A model generated the notes under the pieces. The model saw only the letters and a program-made list of their open reading frames with translations. It did not search any database and was not told the origin of the DNA. The translations under genes were made by a program, and so were the position numbers. Shown here piece by piece: positions 33,860-41,045 of a DNA stretch of 64,000 bases; the first letter of the stretch is position 1, and each line of letters starts with the position of its first letter. The stretch lies in assembly GCF_053078305.1 (NCBI RefSeq), contig NZ_CP166879.1; one strand, 5' to 3'.

Positions 33860-33947
33860 GGAAGTGTGGCCGAGCGGTTGAAGGCACCGGTCTTGAAAAC
33901 CGGCGACCCGAAAGGGTTCCAGAGTTCGAATCTCTGCGCTTCCGCCA
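33860..33947 (+). tRNA. serT: tRNA-Ser (anticodon UGA), serT
   Basis: GGAAGTGTGGCCGAGCGGTTGAAGGCACCGGTCTTGAAAACCGGCGACCCGAAAGGGTTCCAGAGTTCGAATCTCTGCGCTTCCGCCA; long variable arm; CTTGAAA anticodon loop. Confidence 0.93.
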
Positions 33948-34087: not shown

Positions 34088-34417
34088 ATGAATAACCCCA
34101 ATCCATGCATGACGTGTGGTGCCTGTTGTGCATTTTTCCGCGTCTCTTTTTACTGGGCAGAAGCTGACGATGCTGGCGGAAAGGTTCCGGTCAGTCTCAC
34201 TGAGCAAATATCCCCCTTTCATCGCTGTATGCGCGGCACCAGTCAGAAAAATCCCCGATGTGTCGCTCTGGCGGGAACTCCGGGTAAAAACGCATATTGC
34301 TCTGTTTACAAAAACCGTCCGTCCACGTGCCGGGAATTCGCAATGTCCGGAGAAAATGGCATCGCAAATGAAGCATGCAACCGCGCCCGGGCAAAATACG
34401 GACTTCCGGAAATCTGA
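34088..34417 (+). CDS. YkgJ-family (CxxCxxCC) putative metal-binding protein
   Basis: 109 aa [31 protein letters not shown]...; only plus-strand gene in the insertion, between serT and tfa. Confidence 0.7.
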
Positions 34418-34580: not shown

Positions 34581-35252
34581 TTATTCCTGTGCCCAGCCAA
34601 CCCTGTATGCCAGGATCTCATCCGCACTGCTCAGCGATTCCAGGTCCTTCTTCATGGTGCGCTGGCGAATGTGGATTTCCATCCCTTTGGTGAACATCGC
34701 CTGCTCTGCCGCTTCACTCAGCGCAATAAGCTCTTCTGCTGTCACCGGCACATCATTGTTTTCCGCATCCGTCCAGAAAAACGCCTCCGGCAGTTTCCCC
34801 GATTTCGCTGCCGCCACCGACGGCTCAAGACGCGTCTGCGTTGACTTCCCGTAGTCCCATTTACGCCCATTGTGCTCAAACGTGTAGTTCGCCGCTTCCA
34901 TCGCATTACGCCAGGCGTTAATTTCATCGCCCTTCATCCCTCGCGCTTTCTCCGCGGTCAGCAGGTCCGTGATTTTCTCCCCGTCAAAACCCCAGCGCCC
35001 CGAGATGTCAGCTTTGCGGTTTTCTTCCGTATCCGCCACCTCCACCACACTCTGGCCCACTGGCCACAGAACTGATGCCACCCTGCTGATGCCGGTAATG
35101 ACTCCGGCACTGTTATAAACCACCTTCAGCGTCTCTGCTGAAAATAACGACTGACACTCATACCAGTCCTGACCATCCTCTGATTTCAGGTACATCGCAC
35201 CCGGCACATCCGGATTTTCCGGCGTGTATTGTCTGAAATTCTTTATGTGCAT
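34581..35252 (-). CDS. tfa: tail fiber assembly protein (Tfa family)
   Basis: 223 aa immediately downstream of stf; N-terminal VVY..G.I.GISR....SVVEV.D...NRKAD.SG.W.F pattern typical of Tfa/gpG chaperones. Confidence 0.7.
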   Translation of the reverse strand: MHIKNFRQYTPENPDVPGAMYLKSEDGQDWYECQSLFSAETLKVVYNSAGVITGISRVASVLWPVGQSVVEVADTEENRKADISGRWGFDGEKITDLLTAEKARGMKGDEINAWRNAMEAANYTFEHNGRKWDYGKSTQTRLEPSVAAAKSGKLPEAFFWTDAENNDVPVTAEELIALSEAAEQAMFTKGMEIHIRQRTMKKDLESLSSADEILAYRVGWAQE

Positions 35253-35293: not shown

Positions 35294-37012
35294 TTATAAT
35301 GGAAAATACTCAAACCCCGAAGCTCCTGACGACACATACTCACCCACGCTGACTGTACGCCACTGAGAACCATCAAATGTCACCTGAAGCGGCCTGTAAG
35401 AAACCGATATCACACCATCTGCTCCTCTACTTTTCAGACCAGTAATCACAGCTCCTATACTCAGGCTTATTGACAGAAAACCAGAGCTCTCTTCTGCTCT
35501 GTAAGTCTGTTCATTACCCAGCCTGATACCCACAACCCGGCTCTTCCCGTCTGATGCCCCGGGCGGCCCCATCGGCCCGGTTTCTCCACGCTCACCTCTG
35601 GGACCGGGGTCGCCTTTCTCCCCTTTCGGTCCCTGCGCTCCCCGCGGACCAGCGGGGCCTGTTGCTCCCGTTTCACCTTTCGGACCCTGTGCTCCGGGGT
35701 CACCTTTCTCTCCTTTCGGACCGGGAACACCACCTCCTGCTGCAGCCTCTTCTGCCTTTGTTTTCGCTTCATTTGCCACATCCATTGCCGCCTTCACGGC
35801 CTTCGGCGTGGCTGCCTTTGTTTCGTCATTACTGCCAGTATCACTGCTTAACTGCACCACACCTTTCTGCGTCGTGCTGGCATCCCGCTGGCTGACCGTA
35901 TCCGGTTTGTTTTTTGTGCTGTAATCCACCCGCCAGTGGAAATACCGTGTGTCGCCGTAAACCGTACAGGTACAGACCGTGCCATTAATAAACCCCGTTG
36001 CACCGTATTCGCCAATGGTGACCCGGACTATGGCAGCCTCATACGTTCCCATCACCTCAATGACACAGCCACCCAGATTGAGTTTTCCCGGTCCGACATC
36101 CGTGATGACTTTATTCATTGACGCAAGCAGTGATGCCTTCATCATCCAGTAAGGCTGGTCAAATGCCCCTTTTTCTTTCAGCCAGGCAACAAACTCGCGT
36201 GTTTTCCATTCACCGGCCCCCGTATGAATGTCCCGCCCGTATACTCTGGCTGCTCCCACGGTGTTCAGAAACTTCACCTTATCCGGGATATCATCACCGT
36301 TTTTCGCTTTCTCCAGGCATCCGTCCGCTTTGTCCATTGCCGCTTTCACCGCTTTCGGCGTGGCTGCCTTCGTTTCATCATCACTGTCCGTTGCGCTGCT
36401 TAACTGCACAATTCCCTTCTGTGCCGTCGTCGCATCCGGCCCTCCCGGCTCGCCTTTTTCGCCCTTCTCTCCCCGTTCACCTTTCACACCCTGAAGCCCC
36501 TGTGGTCCTGTCTCACCACGCTCACCCTTTGGCCCCCGCTCGCCGGTATCGCCTTTTGGCCCGGGAATACCCTGCGGCCCGGTGTCCCCCTTATCCCCCT
36601 TCGGTCCCCGCGCATTCTCTGCCCGTTTCTTCGCTTCCTCTGCACTCGCCGCTGACGCTTCCGCACGTTTCAGGATTTCCGCTGCCACCGCTTCCAGCTC
36701 TGCAAGGGCTTTCGGGTAATACTGTGCGTCTTCCAGGTCCATCAGAAATTTATTCAGCGTTCCCGGTGCAGAATCCGCCTTCACCAGAATGTCACCCACA
36801 TATGACGGCGCGTACCCTTCCGTGTTCAGCGTCACCCGGTACAACCCCGGCTCAACATCCATACTGTAACTGCCGGTTTCCCCCGGCTGACCATACGCCA
36901 CCGTGGTGACAATCACCATCTCCGTTGTGCGGCGCGCTTTCAGCTCTATCGTGCATCCCGGTACTGGTTTTCCCGTACCATCCTTCAGCACACCCGATAT
37001 TCTGACTGTCAT
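35294..37012 (-). CDS. stf: side tail fiber protein Stf with collagen-like repeats
   Basis: 572 aa; N-terminus [28 protein letters not shown] resembles lambda Stf; two G-X-Y repeat blocks; duplicated KGIVQLSS...[15 protein letters not shown] motif. Confidence 0.88.
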
Positions 37013-37154: not shown

Positions 37155-37295
37155 TTACTGCTTACACTGTAAGAACGCCGCAATCTCCGCGCCCGCTATC
37201 CGGAACCGGAACTCGCACAGTGAACTGTGGGTGATCCAGATAATGAGCACTACCGTGATACAAATCACGGTGGTTTTTAACGGTTTTTGCGACAT
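37155..37295 (-). CDS. Hok/Gef-family small membrane toxin (46 aa)
   Basis: Hand translation MSQKPLKTTVICITVVLIIWITHSSLCEFRFRIAGAEIAAFLQCKQ; AAGGAG SD 8 nt upstream; TM helix then LCE.R.R..G.EIAAF motif; coordinates approximate. Confidence 0.6.
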   Translation of the reverse strand: MSQKPLKTTVICITVVLIIWITHSSLCEFRFRIAGAEIAAFLQCKQ

Positions 37296-37493
37296 AAACG
37301 CTTGCTCCTTTTACGGAGAGGCGCTAACCTTCAATTTGCTGAAGATCGAAAGTCAGGCCTCGGGTTAAACATGAATGTTTGTCCGGGGCCTTCGTCTTTC
37401 CGGCCTTCAGGTGTTCCCTCCGGCCATCAGCCAAAGGCACCCGCGCATACTGTACGGTTTTTGTCTCCTTCCGGCAATCCCGGGGCGCGATGT

Positions 37494-40400
37494 TCAACTG
37501 ATGCCGATCCCCGCCGTGGATTTTTTCATGACCACAACCAGTAAATCACTGATGTATGTTGTCGGCGTCCAGTGGTTCACCCCGTTCGACCACACATTAA
37601 ACGTCAGGGTCACATGACCCCGTCCTGCTGGCATATCAATGACGGACGAAAACACCCGGGTGACATCCGTTGCCGGCTGATGAAAAATTACCCTTCCGTT
37701 CATCTGCACCTGTAACTGACACGTGGAATACCATGTTGAAGTGTGATCTTTGCTGGACTGGTGCTCATGTCTCGCCCCCCGGAACAGCACCGGTGGAATG
37801 ATAATCTGCCGGTCGAAGCCCTGGTCATCGTAAACCGTGACGGTTATCGTGCCACTGGCATAACTGTTATTCCGGGGAAAGGCTTTCCCCACCGTCTTCA
37901 CCAGATCGCCTTCAATCTGGTTCGCAGACAGTTTCCCTCTGATGACACAGTTCTCGTTAATGGTGACATTATTGAGCGTGCCGCTATTCGCTGTGACAGC
38001 TCCACTGATGTCCGCATTGCGGGCCGTCAGCCTGCCCTCCGGCGTCAGGGAGAACGTCGGGGGATTGCCGGACGAGGTGATGCTCACTGCAAACAGTCGC
38101 TTCAGGAACACATCGTTCATGAACAGCTGATTCCCCTGCGCCACAAACAGCGGCGTGGTGTTGCCGTTCTCCGGGTTAATCATCGCGATACGGTCCGCCT
38201 GCAGCAGAATATTGCTCAGGGGCTGGCCATCAGCATCCTCAATCCCCGCACCTATACCGGCAACATACGGAATGCCGTTTTTCGTTTTCTGCACCTTCAG
38301 CATATACAGCGCAGCCAGGTCGTTATTTGTGTCTGTCTGCACCCGCTGTATCTGCTGTATGGTGGCACTCTGGTCTTCCAGGGTTTTACTGACCGTCTGC
38401 GTGATTTCATTGCGGGTTTCGGTGATGGTGGTCTTCATCTCCGCCATCTCATCGTCAAGCTGGCTGTTATCAATCAGCTCCCACATCCCCTGTGCCAGAT
38501 GTGTCTTCCCGATTTCTCCTCTGAAAAAGTCCAGATACCCTTCCGCATCATTGCTCGCCCGGCCACTGGCTTCCACAAACGCAGATTTCCCCACCAGGTT
38601 GACGCTGCGCACATAAAACCAGAAATCCTTCCCCGGCTTGATGTGCGGGCCGGAGACGCTCCACTGGCTGCCTGTCCCCAGATAACGGGCAGAGGTTTCC
38701 ACCTGAGATGTGTCTGCGATTTTTGCCTCCGAGAACCAGAACTCAAACTGTACCGTCGGGTCATACACCGCCAGCACCGGTACTGCTGTTATCTGATAAT
38801 ACCCCGGCGTCAGCTCAATGCTGGCCGGTGCTGCAGGCGCATTAATCCGGAACGCGGTGGTGGCAGGTTCGCCCTGCTGGCCGTAGCTGTTTATCGCCCT
38901 GACCGTCAGGGTGTATTCCCCCAGAGGCAGGCCACTGAAACGGTGCTCCGTGTCGGCAGTGATGGCGGTGGTCACCAGGCGGCTGTTTTCACCGTTTCCG
39001 CTGGTCAGGCGCAGACTGAAGCGCACGCCCTTCACCACCCGCGGCGTGTCCCATTTCGCCAGCGCCAGATACTGGCCGTCTGAGGCACTCACCTCCACCG
39101 TGAGGTGCTGCACTGCCGGCGGGATAACGCTGTTCAGTGAACCGGACAGCGGCTCAAAGCGAGCCCCGTTATCCACAATGGCTTCTTTTTCCGGTACGTG
39201 CTGCACTGCCGTGATGGCAAAAGTGCCGTCCGTGTTTTCCCGGATGGAAACACAGCGGAACAGGCGACGACGCAGTGACGGCAGGGAGAGTCCCCACACA
39301 CCGTATGTCTCCACGCCATCCGGCAGGGCGCTGACCTGTATCCGGTCCGGCGCGGGGTGTGCAGTGATGTCCACGCGCACCGGCTTACCGCTGCCGTTAA
39401 TCAGGTTCACCGTCGATGTCCCTGCTTCCGGCAGTGTCACCTCACGGTCCAGCGTCAGTGTGCGGCTGGCGGCATCAATGGACAGGATGCGTCCGCCGGT
39501 CAGGGTCCCGGCATAGTCGTTATCACAGATTTCAATGATGTCACCGGGCGTATGCCGCAGCCCCTGTGACCCGAGCGTGAAATCCACCGTCTGCGTTTCC
39601 AGCAGTTCGGTCTTTATCACCCACAGTCCGGCACGGTGGGCCTGACCGCGGCTGGTACAGCCAAACGCATCCATCTTCAGCAGGTTGCGTCCGTAGCGCA
39701 GGATGGCGTCCGGGTCTTCCACCAGTTCCGTGGAGGTCTGCCAGCCGTTCTGCGGGTCGGTGTAATTCACCTCCACCGCCGTGTGCCGGTCCTTCAGGGC
39801 ACTGAAGCTGTAGCGGAACCCCACGCCGTTATCATCCACCACCACATCGCTGTTGGTGTACGGCCACACCACATCCGACGGACGGTCCTGAACGAACGTC
39901 AGCGTCTGGCCGTTCCATACCGGCATACAGCGCATCGCCGAGCAGAAATCCCCCAGGACATCCCACACCTTACGCTGCTGTGACAGGTACGCATTGAAAG
40001 TCATCCGCGGCTCTGTTCCCCCGAAACCATCCGGGACCGTCTGGTCGCAGTACTGCCCGATGGCATACAGTGCCCACTTGTCCACATCCGCGGCCCCCAG
40101 GCGTTTTCCCATGCCGTAGCGCGGGTGGGTCAGCATGTCCCACAGGCACCAGGCCGGGTTATTGCTGTATGCCGGTTTCAGACTCCCGTCCCAGATACCG
40201 CTGTAGGTGCGTTTTTCCGGGTCATAGTTTGACGGCACCTGAATGATGCGACCACGGATATGGTAGTTCACCGTCAGCTGCTGGCCACCAAACTGCTCCG
40301 CATCCACCTGCAGCCCCACAATGGCCGTGTTCGGGTAGCACTGTTTCACATCGATGATTTCGGTGTATGACGACCACAGCGTTCTGTTCTGCAGCTGGTC

Positions 40401-40970
40401 CGTGGTGCTGTCCGCCGTCTCCCTGACCATCCGGATGTTAAAGGGGCGCTCAGGGAGATTATTCAGAATCACAGACGTCAGGTACTGCGAGGTGGTCTTG
40501 CCGTTAATGGTGATATCCTTCTCCGTCACCCAGTGCCCGTTACGCTCAAGCTGAATCAGCAGGCGGACAGAAGAGGGATTACGGTCACCCTTTGAGGTGG
40601 TCTCCACCAGTGACTGCACCCCGAAGGTGACCCGCAGACGGTCAATGTTCGCTGACGTGATGGTGCGCGTCACCGGCTTTGCCTTCGTCACCTCCACGCC
40701 CAGTGCGGTTTCTGCCCCGGAGGACTCAAAGCCTTCCGGCGGTGTCTGCTCCTGCTCCCCGGCGCGCCAGACGGCGGTCACACCGTGTATCACGGGATTA
40801 CCGTCCGTGTCCGTCAGCGGGGTTTTGTTCACCAGAATACTCTGCAGTCCCTTCACCGGACCTTCCACCGGTCCCTCACCAATGGCATCAATCACGCTCA
40901 TCATCTGCGTGGATTTGAGATTGTCCTTCGCCTCACGCGGTGTGTGCCCCTTGCCGCCCCCTTTACCCAC
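37494..40970 (-). CDS. J: tail tip / host specificity protein J
   Basis: About 1158 aa from GTG ([37 protein letters not shown]), collinear with lambda gpJ throughout; track ORF extends 17 codons upstream. Confidence 0.92.
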
Positions 40971-41007
40971 TCTGCCCCCCTCTCCTGTCTGATGTCTGAA
41001 TCTGTTT

Positions 41008-41045
41008 ATGCCCAAAAACAACAGGCACCCCGGAGGGTGCCTGTG
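41008..41045 (-). terminator. intrinsic terminator-like hairpin upstream of J
   Basis: Minus strand CAGGCACCC-TCCG-GGGTGCCTG followed by TTGTTTTTGGG. Confidence 0.5.

Follow-up and report, generated by a model that had tools for sequence, protein, structure and literature searches.

Phage_fiber_2 motifs and collagen-like blocks as probable module seams in a side tail fibre gene of an Escherichia coli prophage

Introduction

The stretch of DNA analysed here (contig NZ_CP166879.1, 64,000 nucleotides (nt), hereafter the window) contains at 35294-37012, on the minus strand, a gene similar to stf, the side tail fibre gene of phage lambda. The ORF list gives it as an intact single open reading frame (ORF) of 572 amino acids (aa). 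Its product has two collagen-like blocks of Gly-X-Y triplets (Col1 and Col2) and two copies of a short motif, Phage_fiber_2 (Pf2a and Pf2b), one beside each block. A reading of the sequence alone had described it as a side tail fibre with an internally duplicated segment, and had proposed that the direct repeats within the gene are recombination substrates for fibre length and receptor variation. The question raised by this locus is whether the gene carries a recent and recombinogenic duplication, or whether its repeats are older and mark the places where fibre modules are joined.

We conclude that this gene very probably encodes a trimeric side tail fibre, that the lambdoid prophage carrying it lies next to tRNA-Ser and the hya operon of E. 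coli, that the fibre belongs to the EPcl family of collagen-like prophage fibres, and that the Pf2 motifs and collagen blocks act as the seams between its modules. The identification as a side tail fibre, already made from the sequence alone, is supported because the protein matches the phage_tail_N domain (PfN, PF08400; E 9.7e-41 over aa 1-134, the full length of the profile) and the collar domain of lambda Stf (9e7m, E 3.6e-28), and because the gene lies between J and a tail-fibre assembly (tfa-like) gene. From the N-terminus, the protein consists of the lambda-Stf-type PfN domain, a short coil, Col1, Pf2a, a domain similar to fibre S' of phage Mu, Pf2b, a linker, Col2 and a C-terminal tip.

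A single diverged repeat within the fibre gene

We compared the gene with itself at the nucleotide level. A direct repeat of 108 nt (36333-36440 versus 35781-35888) has 87 of 108 positions identical (81%), and the alignment of the two segments agrees with it. In 100 versions of the gene with shuffled codons, the best self-match of this length averages 48% ± 1.2% and never exceeds 52%. Hence, the nucleotide identity expected between the two segments is present, and each collagen block is indeed accompanied by a copy of the KGIVQLSS motif that forms part of a direct repeat of about 100 bp. A direct scan of the protein finds the motif, written as KG[IV]VQLSS, twice (aa 193-227 and aa 377-411), together with two Gly-X-Y runs, both uninterrupted. 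These are the two collagen blocks announced by the sequence-only reading: one of 19 triplets (aa 136-192), which holds the peptide quoted there, and one of 20 triplets (aa 428-487). The interval that had been assigned to them, 35590-36613, cuts off the last 38 nt of Col2. The same scan detects neither collagen runs nor the KG[IV]VQLSS motif in the other genes of the window.

The Pf2 pair is the only specific DNA repeat in the gene. There are just two exact repeats of at least 14 nt, of 17 and 14 nt, and both lie within Pf2. Col1 and Col2 reach a best in-register identity of 63% over 129 nt, compared with 58 ± 2.2% for triplet-shuffled controls, 3% of which reach 63%. The likeness of the two collagen blocks, which the repeat search listed as well, is essentially that of a periodic Gly-X-Y codon composition and not that of specific copies. 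Tandem Repeats Finder reported nothing between 35000 and 37300, the repeats being dispersed and not tandem.

Two collagen blocks and two Pf2 motifs in one gene could be the product of a recent tandem-type duplication of a unit made of a collagen block and a Pf2 motif, which would have left the gene with a fresh and highly recombinogenic repeat. The Pf2 copies are also 80% identical to each other in nucleotides, slightly above the 74-77% of either copy with the Pf2 of P-EibA ORF-401 (77% for Pf2b), although these values are too close to assign the copies to orthologous pairs. Yet the layout is mirror-like (Col-Pf2 ... Pf2-Col), with no duplicated Col+Pf2 unit, and the collagen blocks are alike at the compositional level only. 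The Pf2 copies differ at 20% of their positions, with synonymous differences in 12 of the 30 codons for conserved residues (40%). Finally, the flanks of the two copies are unrelated to each other, and each type is found alone in other fibres: in Mu S, Pf2 leads into an '...NG.DIP.K' segment, and in P-EibA ORF-401 into an AKTKAEEAA linker and a collagen block. We consider a recent duplication to be largely refuted and highly improbable. Because of the mirror-like layout, the divergence of about 20%, the synonymous codon changes and the unrelated flanks, the repeat is best read as two copies of an old and strongly conserved protein motif, brought together by the fusion of modules. The description as an internally duplicated segment holds for a repeated motif of about 35 aa and overstates the rest.

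Natural alleles that differ by the region between the repeats

If the two Pf2 copies recombine, the product should be a fibre with a single hybrid motif. We wrote out the protein predicted from a crossover between Pf2a and Pf2b (388 aa) and used it as a search query. It retrieved a fibre of E. coli O146 (P0135) with 97% coverage and 90% identity, when all proteins with two Pf2 motifs had at most 61% coverage. At the DNA level the O146 allele (L006) is 97.9% identical to our gene over 633 nt, shows a clean gap of 552 nt, and continues with 96-100% identity through Col2. The missing segment is bounded by an 11-nt sequence, GCGGCAATGGA, found at 36333-36343 and at 35781-35791. Position-by-position typing of single-nucleotide differences places the switch of the O146 motif from a-like to b-like inside this 11-nt sequence, which both copies share.

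The hybrid motif is not restricted to O146. In the Stx2-phage fibres of O104:H4 2011C-3493 and O157:H7 EC4115, the one Pf2 present switches at the same point, and its DNA is 98-99% identical to a Pf2a/Pf2b hybrid derived from our gene. Like the O146 allele, Stx-phage fibres with a single Pf2 lack the 552-bp segment. As one uninterrupted piece with at least 95% identity, the hybrid Pf2 is present in 326 complete-genome records. An assembly artefact was considered as the sole source of the O146 deletion allele and rejected, given that the homology at the junction is only 11 nt and that closed genomes carry the hybrid. Fibres of the Col-Pf2-Col type (EPclB) and of the Col-Pf2-MuS-Pf2-Col type differ by a cassette bounded by the Pf2 repeat. 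On an evolutionary scale, these natural alleles support the idea that the repeats take part in recombination.

The direction of the change is less clear. The hybrid is most simply accounted for by a single deletion or by one in-register crossover joining a gene of Pf2a type to one of Pf2b type, since an insertion needs two crossovers at the same spot; the alleles point to this order of events and do not prove it. Alternatively, the form with one Pf2 (EPclB and EPclC) could be ancestral, our type having arisen by the insertion of a Mu/P2-like cassette made of the central domain and a Pf2 motif. The pair of motifs would then be a scar of acquisition and not a substrate for deletion. One-Pf2 fibres are very common and were described first (PMC3368898), and the central domain has clear relatives in myoviruses (Mu S' and PSP3 gp19). 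Set against this, both crossovers would have to fall on the same 11-nt spot of Pf2, where one deletion or in-register crossover explains the hybrid, and other phages have 'pure' a-type units and 'pure' b-type units apart from each other, suggesting that the hybrid is the derived state. We regard the insertion as possible but rather doubtful. Pf2 remains a recombination seam whichever the direction, deletion or insertion.

Length variation and module exchange across alleles

We then asked how the gene varies among its relatives. DNA resembling it occurs in 486 of 5,426 complete E. coli genomes, 40 of which carry most of the gene. From the best protein homologues we took 133 complete proteins with the Col-Pf2-MuS-Pf2-Col architecture (two-Pf2 alleles). 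In 132 of them Col1 spans 57 aa; the remaining one (P0005) has an in-frame deletion of 40 aa inside Col1. Col2 varies between 20 and 72 triplets, with modes at 24, 36, 48 and 60, i.e. in steps of 12 triplets or 108 bp. After a common start made of Pf2b, the linker and Col2, these alleles end in one of three types of C-terminus.

Fibres of sequenced phages extend this pattern. The fibre of phage 1720a-02 has the same architecture and is 93% identical to ours. In phiSTEC1589-Stx1c, gp54 has the module set of aa 136-572, but its N-terminus differs and its Col1 has 31+20 triplets. The N-terminus of our protein recurs in P-EibA ORF-401, where it is followed by a collagen block, one Pf2, a second collagen block and another C-terminus. 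Judging from these sequences, the collagen blocks are, across alleles, sites of length change and of joining to foreign modules. Aligning phiSTEC1589 gp54 globally with the O104:H4 fibre told us little, as the two differ in Col2 length and C-terminus.

The partner gene downstream also differs between fibres that share the Pf2-linker-Col2 start: the Stx phage of O104:H4 has a gene annotated as 'receptor recognizing protein Gp38' (L007 3568-4080), compared with a DUF4376 Tfa-like gene here. It appears that a C-terminal module and its partner gene move as a pair.

Several observations weigh against this reading of the fibre and its seams. The contig that carries the O146 allele belongs to a draft assembly and ends 0.6 kb from the allele, a lesser concern given that the hybrid Pf2 is also found in closed genomes. 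Identical runs between the Pf2 copies reach 17 nt at most, which is shorter than the minimal efficient pairing segments published for RecA (31-34 bp) and Red-beta (23-27 bp; PMC3945230). The length of Col1 is essentially invariant, and in the class of C-terminus to which our protein belongs (FEYF type) Col2 has 20 triplets in 10 of 10 alleles. The sharpest variation, a patch in the tip at aa ~496-537, is not bounded by Pf2 or collagen repeats. Triple helix, trimerisation, receptor binding and expression of this gene are read across from its relatives. Lastly, the support for recombination comes from natural alleles compared between genomes, on an evolutionary scale.

Exchange within this copy of the gene is probably rare, because the longest identical run of 17 nt and the divergence of about 20% lie under the pairing thresholds. 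Phage Rad52-like recombinases recombine diverged sequences, stf regions included, far better than RecA (PMC3945230). Microhomology or slippage may contribute to exchanges at Pf2 as much as true homologous recombination does. Hence, the proposal that the repeats are recombination substrates is borne out by the absence of the cassette from the O146 allele and by the 326 records of hybrid Pf2, and needs tempering for the copy studied here. Similarly, the proposed variation in fibre length and receptor agrees with the range of Col2 lengths and the changing C-termini; it does not extend to Col2 in the class of our protein, nor are the limits of the tip patch set by repeats. The comparison with stf alleles of other prophages that had been suggested thus does reveal variation in Col2 length and C-terminus.

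A stronger version of the proposal would make the Pf2-flanked cassette a functional switch, deleted measurably during lytic growth by a phage recombinase able to act on diverged repeats. A single prophage would in that case yield two kinds of fibre, a long one with the Mu S'-like domain as a mid-fibre knob and a short one that lacks it, which would differ in reach or in a second receptor specificity. We think this very unlikely. In a milder version, the Mu S'-like domain might be a second, mid-fibre site of receptor binding, giving a fibre of dual specificity.

Some relatives carry lesions. One (P0153) has a deletion inside the Mu S'-like domain and another (P0150) a frameshifted Col2 tail; with the deletion in P0005, they show further rearrangements of the collagen and central regions. 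The protein cluster at 90% identity has 2,580 members, mostly partial proteins on short contigs, and genomes carry up to 7-12 places that match parts of the fibre gene. This gene is evidently a frequent breakpoint in short-read assemblies. In NZ_CP046539.1, the orthologous gene (1528695-1530422; L001 6001-7728) is labelled by RefSeq/PGAP as two 'incomplete' pseudogene fragments. It translates as an intact protein of 575 aa, and we dropped the idea that a frameshift in the collagen-coding DNA lies behind the label, which looks like an annotation artefact of a mosaic, repeat-rich gene.

The partial members of the cluster, the pseudogene label and the frameshifts or internal deletions of relatives such as P0150 and P0153 are what one would expect if the gene were a decaying remnant in a cryptic prophage, its repeats having no present function and the variation of its alleles reflecting neutral drift or assembly noise. 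We find this unlikely. The fibre ORF, J and tfa are all intact here, and the supposed pseudogene of NZ_CP046539.1 is not one on translation. Length changes occur in frame, by whole triplets, and the architecture is present in the sequenced phage genomes 1720a-02 and phiSTEC1589-Stx1c. The hybrid Pf2 is found in closed genomes, so it is not an artefact of assembly.

Domain organization and proposed build of the fibre

The features of the gene and its two tail-gene neighbours are listed in table 1.

Table 1. Features of the stf-like gene and of its neighbours in the window. Coordinates are window positions; aa numbers refer to the 572-aa product.
Feature	Position	Strand	Basis
stf-like side tail fibre gene	35294..37012	-	PHROG 366 tail fiber, E 2e-118
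N-terminal domain, aa 1-91; homologous to the lambda gpStfN collar domain	36740..37012	-	9e7m, E 3.6e-28, aligned 1-91 to 1-91
Linker and short Ala/Glu/Lys-rich segment, aa 92-135; presumed short trimeric coiled coil	36608..36739	-	sequence, within PF08400 match
Collagen-like block 1 (Col1), 19 Gly-X-Y, aa 136-192, ends GEPGGPD	36437..36607	-	perfect Gly-X-Y run and Pfam
Pf2 motif copy a, aa 193-227	36332..36436	-	Pfam, repeat search, alignment
Central domain, aa 228-376; homologous to residues ~175-324 of phage Mu G(-) fibre S'	35885..36331	-	PDB sequence search
Pf2 motif copy b, aa 377-411	35780..35884	-	Pfam, repeat search, alignment
Linker, 16 aa (aa 412-427), Pf2b to Col2; contains AKTKAEEAA	35732..35779	-	alignment
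Collagen-like block 2 (Col2), 20 Gly-X-Y, aa 428-487; length-variable block across alleles	35552..35731	-	perfect Gly-X-Y run
C-terminal tip, aa 488-572; divergent Phage_fiber_C-type beta domain; presumed trimerisation and receptor binding	35297..35551	-	variant profile matches, fold model
Hypervariable patch, sharply bounded, aa ~496-537 in tip	35402..35527	-	allele comparison
Optional cassette, 552 bp / 184 codons: 3' tip of Pf2a, Mu S'-like domain and most of Pf2b	35792..36343	-	allele alignment
J, tail tip attachment protein; upstream neighbour of the fibre gene	37494..41021	-	Pfam and context
Tail-fibre assembly / chaperone-like gene, 223 aa; downstream neighbour	34581..35252	-	Tfa-type N-terminal part and DUF4376

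Three further Pfam families match the protein. PF03406 (Phage_fiber_2), a repeat of 42 residues for which we took at least one match above the gathering score, matches two stretches (E 3.1e-35; 119.9 bits against a cut-off of 22), as does PF01391 (Collagen; E 7.5e-18). A weaker match to PF13620 (CarboxypepD_reg; E 1.5e-08, aa 5-82) overlaps the N-terminal domain and adds no separate domain. The central domain is related to Mu S' (8ju3_A; whole-protein E 4.6e-43), aa ~225-372 matching residues 175-324 with an independent E-value (i-E) of 1.1e-29. In addition, Pf2a and the segment that follows it (aa 193-254) match residues 111-172 of Mu S/S' (i-E 1e-11, 8ju3_A). The gp19 protein of the P2-like phage PSP3 is 52% identical over aa 193-370. 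The linker between Pf2b and Col2 also trails the single Pf2 of EPclB/EPclC-type fibres.

The tip is the most divergent part. Pfam gives no match in the C-terminal 85 aa, PF06820 (Phage_fiber_C) included, but this family matches 5 of 7 close variants of the domain (best E 2.7e-5). The domain is rare, with 7 representatives among 1.84 billion proteins at E ≤ 1e-3. An AlphaFold2 (AF2) model, monomeric and of moderate confidence (predicted local distance difference test (pLDDT) 72), gives a small beta domain whose only notable match in PDB is weak, to the Mu fibre-chaperone complex (5yvq_A, E 5e-3, probability 1.0, TMq 0.47). A PDB sequence search with the C-terminal 94 aa alone returned a chance match only, and a profile of the seven tip sequences gave a borderline match to a phage short tail fibre (9cuy, E 0.013).

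Within the tip, the hypervariable patch is 40-50% identical to that of the orthologue at the same chromosomal site, the proteins being otherwise at least 93% identical. It is framed by a conserved GIRLGN...TY and a conserved segment of 13 aa, and at least four versions exist among close alleles. Nothing closer than 86.5% to the version of our gene was found in the 5,426 complete E. coli genomes. The patch is probably a receptor-contact surface.

By analogy with its relatives, the fibre may be built as follows. The N-terminal domain would dock on the tail, as does lambda gpStfN. The short coil and two collagen triple helices would form thin rigid spacers of ~16 nm and ~17 nm. These rod lengths are based on the collagen rise of 0.286 nm per residue. 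The Mu S'-like domain, between the two Pf2 motifs, would be the body of the mid-fibre, and the small Phage_fiber_C-like tip would trimerise the chains and probably bind the receptor, aided by the Tfa-like chaperone encoded downstream. In the alleles compared, Pf2 and the collagen blocks are the seams that join such modules. Col2 grows and shrinks in whole triplets, often by units of 12 triplets (108 bp), and Col1 and Col2 are the points where differing N-terminal and C-terminal modules attach. We infer that the exchanges are rare events of homeologous or microhomology-mediated recombination, with phage Rad52-type recombinases or replication slippage as plausible agents, and that selection acts on fibre reach and receptor specificity.

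Relation to known fibres

The EPcl proteins (EPclA-D) are collagen-like proteins of prophages of enterohaemorrhagic E. coli (Ghosh et al. 2012, PLoS One 7:e37872, PMC3368898). The text and tables of that paper describe PfN, Gly-X-Y collagen domains and Pf2 in proteins of prophage tail-fibre loci of E. coli and Shigella, all of which apply to our protein. There, EPclA is a trimer whose collagen triple helix melts at 42 °C and which has a C-terminal trimerisation domain; trimers and triple helices are reported from experiments for EPclA and EPclB only (circular dichroism, analytical ultracentrifugation and electron microscopy), and collagen lengths differing by multiples of three were already noted. 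EPclB (Z1483/ECs1228, Stx2-phage fibres) and EPclC (P-EibA ORF-401) have, like our protein, two collagen blocks split by Pf2. P-EibA ORF-401 is also similar in its N-terminal ~135 aa and in the b-type Pf2 followed by the AKTKAEEAA linker and a collagen block. In contrast, EPclB and EPclC as described there have one Pf2 (Col-Pf2-Col), whereas ours has two, flanking an additional Mu S'-like domain of 149 aa, an architecture absent from those of EPclA-D given in the text and tables of PMC3368898. Our coil is also shorter (~40 aa compared with 88-116 in the EPcl proteins, 116 aa being the PCoil of EPclA, according to the same source), and our C-terminal domain is too divergent for detection by PF06820. 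EPcl proteins end in this PfC domain or in another C-terminal domain that trimerises.

Among sequenced phages, 1720a-02 (KF030445.1, AGR48334.1) has the same Col19-Pf2-MuS-Pf2-Col20 order and, downstream, the same tfa-like gene. This fibre and gp54 of phiSTEC1589-Stx1c (PQ600364.1) carry another version of the tip patch (NKQTYAPQTD...), and the N-terminal part of gp54 is longer than and distinct from ours. Lambda Stf (Ur-lambda, 9e7m) has a homologous collar domain, which binds the tail in Ur-lambda (PMC12617516), and its gene lies after J and before tfa, as here. It has one Pf2 (aa ~355-392), just before the hinge (394-422; PMC12617516). Lambda Stf has long Ala-rich coiled coils where our protein has collagen, and a distal OmpC-binding domain similar to T4 gp37, whereas ours lacks a gp37-type match. 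Between our protein and lambda-like Stf we detected no similarity beyond the N-terminus and Pf2.

The fibres of Mu (S/S'; 5yvq, 8ju3) and PSP3 (gp19) share with ours a Pf2 followed by a homologous domain (aa 193-372 compared with Mu 111-324). Mu also has a chaperone gene downstream of its fibre, and its fibre-chaperone complex is the best PDB fold match of our tip. However, Mu uses another virion attachment domain and lacks collagen blocks, and our protein has no match to residues 1-110 of Mu S, the baseplate-binding region. The variable part of the Mu fibre is switched by inversion of the G segment, unlike ours as far as the repeats show: a repeat search found no Mu-type flanking inverted repeats around the fibre region, invertase genes not having been searched for. 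Outside phages, Scl1 and Scl2 of Streptococcus are bacterial collagen-like adhesins of the cell surface, with an unhydroxylated, charge-rich Gly-X-Y helix and a globular trimerisation domain. Our protein is, by comparison, a predicted virion fibre from a tail gene cluster.

The gene is a member of a catalogued family of collagen-like prophage tail fibres (Ghosh 2012), and to a specialist it is ordinary. An identical protein, recorded from E. coli, has already been deposited at NCBI as WP_044191040.1 / KFD76252.1, under the name 'prophage tail fiber N-terminal domain-containing protein'. The architecture with two Pf2 motifs and a Mu S'-like domain is abundant in databases and present in sequenced phages. 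The mosaic evolution of tail fibres is textbook knowledge. Hence, the finding matters little in itself, the Pf2 cassette seam being a neat illustration and not a new principle. As a by-product, it gives a nucleotide-level example of how a fibre is rebuilt: Pf2 and collagen seams, the presence or absence of a domain of 184 residues, a microhomology of 11 nt and steps of 108 bp in Col2. This has relevance for host-range prediction in Stx and other lambdoid phages. In the engineering of lambda-based delivery particles with exchanged fibres, it is of help in showing at which points chimeras are tolerated. It also bears on annotation and assembly, as the gene is often fragmented in drafts and sometimes mislabelled as a pseudogene.

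Genomic neighbourhood

The gene order is J - hok/sok - stf - tfa - tRNA-Ser - hyaA, the prophage end adjoining tRNA-Ser (33860-33947) and hyaA. The product of the tfa-like gene matches PHROG 136 (tail fiber assembly) over its aa 1-98 (E 3.8e-33) and DUF4376 (E 6e-18), with a match to Caudo_TAP below the Pfam cut-off (E 7.7e-4).

A hok/sok-type type I toxin-antitoxin locus (37155-37442, minus strand) separates J from the fibre gene, in the position of lom in lambda. It consists of a Hok-like ORF of 46 aa (37155-37295, minus strand) and a match to Rfam sok (RF01794) at 37284-37442, with 63.5 bits and a gathering score of 59. Other E. coli prophages have a Hok/Gef annotation at the orthologous site. 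On the strand opposite to the tail genes, a small gene located between the tfa-like gene and tRNA-Ser encodes a YkgJ-family cysteine-cluster protein (34088-34417, plus strand). It looks like cargo at the prophage end, and NZ_CP046539.1 has a YkgJ-family gene in the same arrangement.

Finally, several ORFs of 60-263 aa, rich in Pro, Arg and Ser, overlie the collagen-coding DNA in other frames or on the opposite strand (36118-36909 and 35554-35895 on the plus strand; 35467-35781 and 36484-36666 on the minus strand). They are not genes, and are by-products of a stop-poor periodic sequence of the GGN-CCN type.

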